IMG/VR virus record: IMGVR_UViG_3300042923_001106
Location: 64,001-128,000 of that record
Strand: one strand, 5' to 3'
From: a virus
DNA length: 64,000 bases
Below, piece by piece: positions 30,153 to 31,923 of this stretch; positions within the stretch are counted from its first letter, which is position 1, and each line of letters opens with the position of its first letter. A model generated the notes under the pieces. That model was not told the DNA's origin and searched no databases. It was given only the letters and a program-made list of their open reading frames with translations. The position numbers were made by a program, and so were the translations under genes.

Positions 30153-30803
30153 GTGATATCGATGGATGCAGTTAGATTTTTCATGTTATCTATCTTAGAA
30201 GTTTCAACTTTGTTTGTTCTCATGTTCTCGATATTTAGATTCAAAGTTAGGTTCTATATAAAAGAAATAATTTTTATAAGCGTGTTGATTTCGTTGGCAT
30301 CTTATTATCTTAGATTTTTTGAGAATCTATATAGTTTAGTTCCGATAATACTCCTTGTTCTTATAATAATAAATTTATGGATTGTGTTTAAAATATCACC
30401 TTTCTACGCAGCTATTATGGGGATTGCTTCCTACGTCGGTTATAGTGTTGTACAGGCACTGATACTTTGGATCATGCAAGAGTCCAACTTTGTTACATTC
30501 AATCAGATAAAAGAAAACAATCTACAAACTGGTCAGTTACTTCAGATAATATCGGTTGCCATTACTCTACTGATATCTGTTGTTTTAGTAAGGTTTAGAC
30601 TATGGTTTACGTTTGTTCCTGTATCAAATTCTGTACTCATAAAGATCAACTCGAAGAATCTTATTACACTAATTGCAATTACAATATCTATCATCATAGT
30701 AGGATCGATTTTTAATATAAATAATATCGCTCTTATACTCATTGGATTAGTATTTGTCGCTGGATTTATTTATTACCTTCTGTATAAAAGGGAGACAACA
30801 TGA
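30153..30803 (+). CDS. Polytopic membrane protein resembling the AgrC sensor domain, without a kinase domain
   Basis: About 6-7 hydrophobic segments over the whole 216 aa; ends right after the last TM; overlaps agrB (ATGA). Confidence 0.7.
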   Translation: MISMDAVRFFMLSILEVSTLFVLMFSIFRFKVRFYIKEIIFISVLISLASYYLRFFENLYSLVPIILLVLIIINLWIVFKISPFYAAIMGIASYVGYSVVQALILWIMQESNFVTFNQIKENNLQTGQLLQIISVAITLLISVVLVRFRLWFTFVPVSNSVLIKINSKNLITLIAITISIIIVGSIFNINNIALILIGLVFVAGFIYYLLYKRETT

Positions 30804-31327
30804 TTGATAAATTAACTCATACAATTGGTATGAAAATCAAAAAGAATTATCCAGAAGCAAACATTGAAATCCTTAAATACTCATTGAACGTAATAATAAA
30901 CCCACTAGCAACAATTATCCTTTCAATGGTAATATCACACTTTACTAATGATACTTATGATGTTGTAATCGCTATGGTATCGTTCGCTGTACTTAGGGCA
31001 TTCTCTGGCGGAATACATATTAAATCATCGGAGCTATGCATAATTATCTCAACGACATTATTTATTGGAATCTCTTTTTTGCACGATTACCTCGTCGACT
31101 ATACACTAATACTCACTATCATATCATCATTATTAGCCTTGACTTTTGCACCATCTAGAATTTATGGTCAAACAAGAATTCCGGAGCAGTTCTATCCGAT
31201 TCTAAAAGTTGTTTCATTGGGTATTATTTCAATTAATTATATATTTAACAGCAGTGTACTTGCTTTAACTTTTTTCATACAAAGTATGCTGCTGATTAAC
31301 ATCGGGAAAGGAGGTGAAAACAAATGA
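30800..31327 (+). CDS. agrB: AgrB-family autoinducer-processing membrane peptidase
   Basis: LKYSL, FAVLRAFSGGIH (catalytic His) and SELCII (catalytic Cys), AP motif. Confidence 0.92.
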   Translation: MIDKLTHTIGMKIKKNYPEANIEILKYSLNVIINPLATIILSMVISHFTNDTYDVVIAMVSFAVLRAFSGGIHIKSSELCIIISTTLFIGISFLHDYLVDYTLILTIISSLLALTFAPSRIYGQTRIPEQFYPILKVVSLGIISINYIFNSSVLALTFFIQSMLLINIGKGGENK

Positions 31328-31449
31328 AAAAAATCATCGCAAAATATGCTACCTTGGCTTTGTCTGCAGTTGCTGTTGCTACCGTTAGTGGTACTGCAAG
31401 TTTGGTTTTCGTACACAATCCTAAAGTACCTCAAGATCTCTTGAAGTAA
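31324..31449 (+). CDS. agrD: AgrD-type cyclic (lactone) autoinducer precursor, 41 aa
   Basis: Manual translation MKKIIAKYATLALSAVAVATVSGTASLVFVHNPKVPQDLLK: amphipathic leader, S-L-V-F-V ring candidate, HNPxxPxxL tail; overlaps the agrB stop; RBS AAGGAGG. Confidence 0.88.
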   Translation: MKKIIAKYATLALSAVAVATVSGTASLVFVHNPKVPQDLLK

Positions 31450-31460
31450 TTTTAGGTTGA

Positions 31461-31508
31461 AATTGTTGGACTCGGAGAGTGATCGCTGTACTTTCCAGTC
31501 CAACAATT
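31461..31508 (+). other. Long stem-loop between agrD and the LytTR gene
   Basis: AATTGTTGGACT...AGTCCAACAATT, with inner GGAGAGT/ACTTTCC pairing. Confidence 0.7.
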
Positions 31509-31521
31509 ATAGTTTCTAGAA

Positions 31522-31923
31522 TTGGAGGATATCTTTGCTATGGAGTTTTTCGCAAAAAAGAAAGATGGGAAGAATATTTCAGAAAAAGTTGAAAAAATTC
31601 ATAGCAAGGATATCTGCTATGTAACCACCGAAGGAAGAAAAGCTCATACAATTGCAAAAATGAAAGATGGCTCTGTATATTATATTTCTATGCCAATATC
31701 AGAAATTGTTCAAGGATTGGAGGAATATGAAAACTTCAAAACAACGGATCGCAGTGTAACAGTCAATATGGATAACGTTACATATTACGAAACGCTGTAC
31801 GATAGGTTATTTTTTGAACATAACAATGAAATGAGGGAGTTTACGTTTATTACTGTAGCTAGATCATATGCTAAGGAAATCAAAGTCCTAATGAGGGAAT
31901 TACGTGTAGAATTTAGGGAATAA
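31522..31923 (+). CDS. LytTR DNA-binding-domain-only regulator (no receiver domain)
   Basis: KDICYVTTEGR...DRSVTVNMDNV...ITVARSYAKEIK matches LytTR (ILYIE..HRSYIVN..VSR); 133 aa. Confidence 0.85.
   Translation: MEDIFAMEFFAKKKDGKNISEKVEKIHSKDICYVTTEGRKAHTIAKMKDGSVYYISMPISEIVQGLEEYENFKTTDRSVTVNMDNVTYYETLYDRLFFEHNNEMREFTFITVARSYAKEIKVLMRELRVEFRE

Follow-up and report, generated by a model that had tools for sequence, protein, structure and literature searches.

This analysis concerns a four-gene cassette in a 64,000-nucleotide stretch of viral DNA (hereafter the window), bases 64001-128000 of the 183,208-bp IMG/VR virus record IMGVR_UViG_3300042923_001106, which is rated complete. Four open reading frames (ORFs) on the + strand, spanning positions 30153-31923 of the window, encode a seven-helix membrane protein (MP), the peptidase AgrB, a peptide precursor of the AgrD type and a protein with a LytTR domain, in that order (Table 1). 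ATGA overlaps join MP to AgrB and AgrB to AgrD. The cassette lies directly 3' of adjacent yopQ and mrpR(yopR) genes, the pair that defines an SPbeta-type lysogeny module. The YopQ-like protein falls in phrog_5732 (325 bits) and is 27% identical to Goe14 YopQ (E 3e-32), and the MrpR/YopR-like protein carries the domains MrpR_N_CB and MrpR_C_cat and is 29% identical to Goe14 YopR (E 2e-32). A YopP-like gene is located ~50 kb from yopQ-yopR in the record.

Across all 183,208 bp of the record, searches for REC (PF00072), HATPase_c (PF02518) and HATPase_c_5 (PF14501) domains found none. AimR (PF22871) had no match up to E 1 in the same record, tblastn with Goe14 AimR and AimP returned nothing, and a DNA-level search of deposited phages gave no match. 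The initial annotation, made from the sequence by a model, had described the four-gene anatomy, the position after a yopQ/yopR(mrpR)-like pair, and the lack of a kinase, a receiver and aimR/aimP; all of these descriptions are confirmed by the domain assignments, the Goe14 comparisons and the searches of the record. The source of the window is likely a temperate phage of 183 kb with Paenibacillus as its host genus, because the yopQ-yopR prophage loci retrieved with a YopQ profile (21 in named genomes) are almost all in Paenibacillus.

Table 1 Features of the cassette, its flanks and related loci. Positions refer to the window unless a locus identifier precedes them
Feature	Position	Strand	Details
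YopQ-like gene (DndB/DGQHR-like), lysogeny module, context	27682..28989	+	PF14072 34.8 bits, TIGR03187
MrpR/YopR-like master-repressor gene, recombinase fold, context	28993..29991	+	PF22822 78.8 bits, PF22823 69.7 bits
Terminator-like hairpin and T-run closing the yopQ-yopR unit	29978..30005	+	10-bp stem, 5 GC pairs, then TTTTTTGTTGT
Cassette promoter-like site	30060..30089	+	TTGACG-18 nt-TG-extended TACATT; consensus scan
MP, stand-alone seven-transmembrane protein, candidate peptide receptor	30153..30803	+	216 aa, likely start ATG 30162
AgrB peptidase	30800..31327	+	PF04647 66.4 bits (cut-off 23)
AgrD precursor	31324..31449	+	41 aa; TIGR04223 21.8 bits (cut-off 19)
Strong RNA hairpin at the agrD-LytTR junction	31447..31524	+	minimum free energy -32.8 kcal/mol, z -4.5
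LytTR-only protein	31522..31923	+	likely start ATG 31540 (127 aa); PF04397 29.4-29.6 bits (cut-off 22.6)
Candidate LytTR-type direct repeat ahead of the next gene	32002..32032	+	AATTACATT-N13-AACTACATT, 8/9 matches
Small gene after the cassette	32061..32429	+	likely start TTG 32194 (~78 aa); no Pfam/PHROG family
Terminator-like site ending the small gene	32426-32451		
LytTR-GGDEF-EAL proteins	L077:4987-6795, L081:940-2793		602 and 617 aa
HTH_3-LytTR genes preceding three tandem MP genes	L077:52-726, L081:7054-7665		
Lys-class peptide ORFs	L001:4025-4144, L002:4013-4141, L003:4027-4143		also in L048, L050, L051, L058, L066, L074, L079

The start of MP is placed at ATG 30162 because homologues begin at the MD encoded there. 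No Pfam family matched the protein. AgrC is a membrane sensor fused to an HPK10 kinase (HATPase_c_5); MP has seven hydrophobic helices and ends with KRETT, five residues past the last of them, and thus is not an AgrC. An exhaustive profile search placed 306 clusters in the MP family, with a typical size of about 215-230 aa. The best 150 of these 306 clusters are all 149-248 aa long, none being of kinase length, and a word-based search for longer or fused forms found none. Based on the positive-inside rule, the N-terminus lies outside and the C-terminus inside. The predicted outside loops are the least conserved parts of the protein (1.0-1.2 bits), whereas the cytoplasmic loops are more conserved (1.7-2.0 bits) and include a GFxFVP motif. 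The membrane core contains the conserved polar residues S13, E16, R54, Q101, Q131 and N169.

In AgrB, H73 and C80 are invariant and seven residues apart. AgrD is predicted from its sequence to contain the ring S-L-V-F-V, closed as a Ser-lactone, followed by the tail HNPKVPQDLLK. Its S26 aligns with the ring Cys of the chromosomal locus L010, placing SLVFV|HNP in register with CWGFS|HRP, and the mature region is identical in the window and in the sister phage contig L005. The cassette peptides form two classes. The first has [S/C]-x4 and then H-x-P-x-x-P-x-E-L, and includes the peptides of the window, of L010 (CWGFS|HRP) and of a second large phage, L084 (SALWL|GSNPAPKSLRK); this shared pattern supports the Ser-lactone ring predicted for the window AgrD. 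The second class, which includes the peptides of phages Davies, Emery and Harrison, has Lys where the ring Ser/Cys would be, with KVSIG, KVFLG, KPFAF and others before x-P..P-K-E-L. A lactam ring made by AgrB is conceivable for these peptides; we know of no natural example of one.

The LytTR protein likely begins at ATG 31540, which has a GGAGGA ribosome-binding site upstream and is the start of the gene call in L005. AgrA combines REC with LytTR; here the LytTR domain is present and REC is absent from a protein of 127-133 aa. The family profile matches the LytTR domain of AgrA (3BS1, E 8e-7) and also that of ComE. As in LytTR regulatory systems (LRS), the regulator is soluble and consists of LytTR only.

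The cassette is not a decaying remnant, a possibility that we rejected on the basis of a comparison of window 30162-31923 with L005:6007-7768. The ratio of nonsynonymous to synonymous divergence (dN/dS) is 0.10 for MP, 0.12 for AgrB, 0.05 for AgrD and 0.02 for LytTR, and the four genes are maintained under purifying selection. Synonymous divergence (dS) is 1.0-1.3 in MP, AgrB and LytTR, compared with 0.36-0.50 in yopQ, yopR and agrD, a contrast in the aligned sequences that points to a mosaic history inside the cassette region.

The same arrangement is widespread in the bacterial family of the probable host. The MP profile matches 118 out of 136 genomes of Paenibacillaceae (the family of a Paenibacillus reference), with 1-9 copies in each, and MP stands directly upstream of 15 out of 16 AgrB genes in seven genomes. 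The suggestion of the initial annotation that similar operons exist on Paenibacillus chromosomes was therefore correct; the cassette is the usual agr-type locus layout of these chromosomes and is not peculiar to phage. We sampled 40 MP loci for gene content. MP occurs with AgrB and a LytTR-domain gene in 23 loci, with AgrB only in two, with LytTR only in one, and alone or in tandem arrays in 14. A complete cassette lies among housekeeping genes in L010, MP with LytTR and no AgrBD is found in L013 (one contig) and L056, and MP-AgrB-AgrD loci that have no LytTR gene are seen in L046, L076, L007 and L011. Tandem arrays of 3-6 MP paralogues, some with stop codons, occur for example at L068:3466-6248 and G129:C1:5931530-5935054.

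None of the LytTR partners that we checked has a REC domain. In the related genomes L077 and L081 a LytTR-GGDEF-EAL protein fills the LytTR slot after MP-AgrB, and in the same two genomes HTH-LytTR genes precede arrays of MP genes. These arrays are the only places where the LRS gene order, with the regulator first, was seen; the cassette of the window does not have it. Since the LytTR slot can hold different proteins, the LytTR domain looks like an MP-coupled part with interchangeable outputs. MP, which may act like the inhibitory cognate membrane protein of an LRS, is co-encoded with and recurrently linked to LytTR, and the earlier idea of a membrane protein paired with a LytTR protein gains comparative support from the loci in which MP accompanies LytTR in the absence of AgrBD or in which LytTR-GGDEF-EAL or HTH-LytTR occupies the slot. 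Orphan MP genes adjoin genes for PAS-GGDEF proteins in L068 and L082. The distribution suggests that the MP family is linked to cyclic di-GMP (c-di-GMP) signalling.

We lean towards reading the cassette, with a chance that we put a little above even, as a phage's copy of an Agr-type module that is common in Paenibacillaceae and signals by peptide with no kinase, MP being the receptor and LytTR the output. Based on the features of the AgrB and AgrD families, AgrB would cleave the 41-aa AgrD and close the five-residue Ser-lactone ring. The exported peptide would be sensed by MP, a bare seven-transmembrane protein that has no DHp or ATPase domains. MP would signal by direct contact to the REC-less LytTR protein, probably by holding it at or releasing it from the membrane as in HdrRM and BrsRM, and the LytTR protein would then alter the transcription of its target genes. 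This model builds on what was observed: the genes with their domains, the missing phosphorelay components, the signs of purifying selection and the repeated linkage of MP, AgrB and LytTR. Its strongest support is comparative, in that MP accompanies LytTR even where AgrBD is missing and LytTR-like domains are fused to other outputs. By analogy, the position of MP in the slot that agrC holds in phage phiCDHM1 argues for a receptor, and the low conservation of the predicted outside loops is in keeping with peptide sensing. Placed in the lysogeny block, the phage module would most likely report the density of cells that have the same or a like cassette.

Structure prediction is consistent with a sensor role for MP. 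An AlphaFold2 model built from a 134-sequence alignment has a predicted local distance difference test (pLDDT) score of 94.4 and a predicted TM-score (pTM) of 0.90. In the ESM Atlas, the nearest models outside the MP family are kinases with HATPase_c_5 (AgrC/HPK10-type) of 353-472 aa, and MP matches their N-terminal membrane part with a TM-score by query of 0.58-0.74 over 171-206 residues. MP thus resembles in its modelled shape the sensor of an AgrC-type kinase. Other searches were less informative. The MP profile retrieved nothing with hmmsearch against local kinases or in a PDB sequence search. PDB fold searches returned generic helical hairpins and noise resembling G protein-coupled receptors, with no Foldseek match at E <=0.001; in a VIA-wide fold search a single chain reached Z >=8 (9i5r_A, Z 8.6), the remainder being helical hairpins. 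One kinase sensor domain, when searched for relatives, matched only itself, and a protein-atlas feature search gave no usable match. The predicted complex of MP and LytTR scored 0.01 against a mark of 0.32, a result that counts neither way.

Several observations weigh against a kinase-free receptor and its LytTR output. When the MP profile was compared with two AgrC-type kinases using hhalign, the probability was <1% and there was no sequence similarity; the likeness in fold compares two predicted structures. The near-constant adjacency of MP and AgrB fits a role in peptide maturation or export equally well, and in 14 of the 40 sampled MP loci there is no AgrB and no LytTR in the vicinity. The LytTR motif of the cassette family is DRS where AgrA has HNS; given this difference and the HTH fusions, the bare LytTR protein is no more than a putative DNA-binding protein. 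Finally, no LytTR-type (LRS/AgrA) direct repeats were found upstream of the -35 of the cassette promoter in a search for repeats with >=7/9 matches and 19-23 nt spacing that are kept in L005, a search that could overlook divergent sites; autoinduction of the kind known from agr and LRS is thus not evident.

The adjacency of MP and AgrB is the starting point for an alternative in which MP is an accessory of peptide production, acting in second-step processing, export or self-protection, and LytTR is controlled in another way, possibly by a host kinase pathway. In Staphylococcus aureus, MroQ has such a second-step processing role. The near-obligate linkage with ATGA overlap junctions, the conserved polar residues within the membrane and the MP-AgrB-AgrD loci with no LytTR gene would all suit an accessory, and an HPK10-type kinase is encoded ~2 kb from one chromosomal cassette (G002). 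However, MP is also found with LytTR in the absence of AgrBD, in arrays behind HTH-LytTR, and alone, none of which fits a processing factor, and its modelled fold resembles kinase sensor domains. A CPBP/MroQ-type (CPBP/Rce1) protease was considered specifically and rejected, as MP matches neither this nor any other peptidase family and has no conserved His. We regard an accessory role as improbable, and kinase-free sensing as the likely model.

What such a module does for a phage was approached through its distribution. Using tblastn with AgrB, ten deposited phage records were matched. Davies, Harrison and Emery encode a 222-aa membrane protein, AgrB, a 38-42-aa peptide and then a ~120-aa LytTR protein that is annotated as 'peptidase' in Davies and Harrison and as 'hypothetical protein' in Emery; the AgrB matches of Abouo and Paisley fall under annotated membrane-protein and AgrB genes. 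The cassette adjoins integrase and repressor genes in Davies, Harrison and Emery, it is likewise beside lysogeny genes in Abouo, and in the Brevibacillus laterosporus prophage L008 it is next to recombinase and HTH repressor genes. Among the large phages, L005 has yopQ-yopR and then the cassette, and L084, a complete IMG/VR phage of 174.5 kb, shares the synteny of all six genes, with identities to the window of 42-43% for YopQ and YopR and 22-34% for MP, AgrB and LytTR (25% for MP). At least three kinds of temperate phage carry the cassette beside a lysogeny switch.

This recurrent position is an argument for a proposed role comparable to that of arbitrium, in which the phage would use the cassette as a communication system of its own when deciding on lysis, lysogeny or induction. 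The peptide would build up with lysogens or infections, and LytTR would act on the yopQ-yopR switch or an early promoter. The cassette directly follows yopR in three large phages (window, L005, L084) despite the low MP identity, and does so in 8 of the 21 prophage loci, with two gene orders (MP first in five, AgrB first in three) and three MP clades. The smaller phages, including Abouo and L008, repeat the association with integrase and repressor genes, and AimR is absent from two complete records, those of the window phage and L084. Against this, 12 of the 21 loci have no cassette gene after yopR and no AimR there, and one more has only a LytTR gene; morons also accumulate at slots beside lysogeny genes; and no target site was found in the switch region, the sole candidate repeat preceding a small non-conserved gene. 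AimR above the Pfam cut-off was found in none of the 20 host genomes searched, which lie behind 20 of the 21 yopQ-yopR loci, with or without the cassette. Its absence is therefore a trait of the host genus and not of cassette carriers, and nothing needs replacing. The earlier suggestion that the cassette may replace arbitrium accordingly gains no support from these genomes. We hold a role in phage decisions as a minority reading, possible but rather unlikely. The specific version, in which large SPbeta-like Paenibacillus phages choose between lysis and lysogeny using a cyclic-lactone peptide and a kinase-free seven-transmembrane receptor that directly gates a LytTR protein, is put forward just as tentatively.

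The history of the slot does not separate signalling from cargo. In a quick tree of MP sequences with an unresolved backbone, the yopR-linked proteins fall in three clades, one of which groups with chromosomal AgrB-first loci, and the slot may thus have been filled more than once. Repeated filling fits either selection for signalling beside the switch or a moron hot spot. A moron that manipulates the host would be a phage copy of a host-type module that speaks or listens on host peptide channels, so that the group behaviour of lysogens (secondary metabolites, biofilm, c-di-GMP) changes and not the phage decision. The module is chiefly chromosomal, with up to 9 MP copies per genome and some loci amid housekeeping genes. 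AgrB-first phage cassettes group together with chromosomal AgrB-first loci (Shimodaira-Hasegawa approximate likelihood ratio test, SH-aLRT, 97), and PHROGs places MP (phrog_15604) in its category 'moron, auxiliary metabolic gene and host takeover'. In addition, peptides made by AgrBD control antibiotic production in P. polymyxa (PMC12180512). Two features speak against a moron: the place of the cassette immediately behind the master repressor does not change from one distant phage to another, and the set of sender and receiver is complete, which is unneeded merely for eavesdropping or jamming. We consider host manipulation a fair contender that still falls short of an even chance.

The hairpin that closes the yopQ-yopR unit and the promoter-like site at 30060-30089 are consensus matches only, and both hexamers of the latter are retained in the related phage L005. 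The hairpin between agrD and the LytTR gene folds better than any of 200 shuffles (0/200 fold as well) and is a possible attenuator or processing site. The candidate direct repeat at 32002..32032 (AAYTACATT, 13-bp spacer) lies 80 nt past the LytTR stop and is shared with L005. In 183 kb there is a single TACATT-N16-TACATT, where 0.27 would be expected; the motif was picked once it had been seen, and chance alone would put ~0.3 such repeats in the spacer. As a LytTR site it is a weak lead. The small gene behind it is conserved with L005 only from LNSK onward and is not clearly conserved in L084; it is a possible, though uncertain, output gene. The best promoter-like match of the region (TTGACA-17-TATATT, 11/12) lies on the - strand at 32025-31997 and points into the LytTR gene, where it would yield RNA antisense to the cassette. 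The candidate direct repeat overlaps with this match, as does a GACAAAAT/ATTTTGTC inverted repeat that L005 also has.

The palindrome ATRAAA-N6-TTTYAT (<=1 mismatch) occurs 61 times in the window against 5.5 expected, between 927 and 58971, and marks most of the other gene junctions. No copy lies in the block 27443-32787, where yopQ, yopR and the cassette are located, and copies flank that block at 27425 and 32788. In SPbeta, MrpR binds the SPBRE operator (PMC10516654), and by analogy the palindrome may be its counterpart in the window phage. If so, we infer that the block would escape direct repression in lysogens. The lack of palindromes in the block counts in favour of a part for the cassette in phage decisions. 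An IS-type DDE transposase gene (DDE_Tnp_1_2, DUF772) occupies 9081-10652 on the - strand, in a gap of the palindrome series. A LexA-box search found no site adjoining the cassette and a count in the window that is not above chance; LexA/Cheo-box-like sites are present at 52622-52635 (CGAACGTTTGTTCG, perfect) and 26858-26871 (CGAACATACGTTCT, one mismatch).

Two other genes of the window are worth recording. A GNAT acetyltransferase gene is located at 26985-27425, 2.7 kb upstream of the cassette. In P. polymyxa, AgrE, which adjoins the agr locus there, acetylates the peptide (PMC12180512). A link between the GNAT gene and the cassette peptide is doubtful, because in L005 the genes called over 3.5 kb upstream of yopQ include no GNAT. 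A full-length homologue of Gad1 (Gabija anti-defence 1) is encoded at 50093-50986 (PF25705, 384 bits).

Should MP and the bare LytTR protein work together as receptor and effector, Agr-type signalling can run independently of a two-component phosphorelay, and a first known kind of signal would be at hand for the orphan LytTR regulatory systems; to our knowledge, no LRS has a known signal. The module is in most genomes of the Paenibacillaceae, a group that includes plant probiotics, antibiotic producers and bee pathogens, and the fusions of LytTR-like domains to GGDEF-EAL suggest that peptide sensing is connected to c-di-GMP. If the cassette does serve phage decisions, it would be a second, mechanistically unrelated phage communication system beside the master repressor. 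The question bears on the means by which phages that do not belong to the Bacillus arbitrium group perceive one another or their hosts, and the cassette, with four small genes and a predicted five-residue ring peptide, offers a concrete and inexpensive test system.

Compared with canonical agr (agrBDCA of S. aureus), the cassette has the same His/Cys pair in AgrB, multi-pass membrane and LytTR proteins in one operon, and a short AgrD with an amphipathic leader, the same five-residue ring position and a P-x-x-P-x-[ED]-L tail. It differs in that its membrane protein has no DHp/ATPase and its LytTR protein no REC, in Ser for the ring Cys and in a gene order with MP first; AgrA-type repeats were not found at its promoter. 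With the LRS HdrRM and BrsRM of Streptococcus mutans it shares a LytTR-only regulator and a membrane protein in one operon that lacks phosphorylation domains (PMC6193735). LRS have the regulator gene in front and, ~10 bp upstream of the -35, direct repeats of 9 bp separated by 11-13 bp (PMC6193735), whereas in the cassette the LytTR gene is last, no such promoter repeats were found, MP belongs to no Pfam family and AgrBD is encoded in addition.

In the cassettes of Davies, Emery and Abouo and of Harrison and Paisley the four genes are the same, are ordered alike and likewise adjoin lysogeny genes. Based on multiple alignments, MP is 24-26% and AgrB 33-38% identical between the Davies-type phages and the window. 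The former have peptides with Lys, not Ser/Cys, four residues before the predicted cleavage site, and genomes of 44-58 kb with cI/integrase-type switches. The agr3 locus of phiCDHM1 (agrC-agrB-agrD) is likewise phage-borne, with the sensor gene directly upstream of agrB, but it encodes a full 453-aa histidine kinase and no regulator, in contrast to the bare sensor-like protein and LytTR protein of the window. Arbitrium (AimR-AimP-AimX, in SPbeta-group Bacillus phages) is also a peptide system in the lysogeny block with yopQ and mrpR(yopR). It uses a cytoplasmic TPR receptor and a linear hexapeptide imported by Opp, has AimR, of which the window has no homologue, and is located upstream of yopP-yopQ-yopR, whereas the cassette is downstream of yopR.

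Parts of this arrangement have been reported before. Phage genome papers list merely an AgrB-family gene, and a 2025 study found that AgrBD of P. polymyxa yield active cyclic peptides and did not address the receptor (PMC12180512). In 2014, Hargreaves et al. (PMC3901668) recorded for Davies, Emery and Abouo AgrB, AgrD and AgrC-like membrane proteins that lack the kinase, and made no mention of the LytTR gene. In the literature that we searched, of which coverage was incomplete, the MP/LytTR-only layout is not described as a system. Thus the layout was partly noted in 2014, and what the cassette adds to the known systems is the joining of Agr peptide production to an LRS-like, phosphorylation-free form of transduction.

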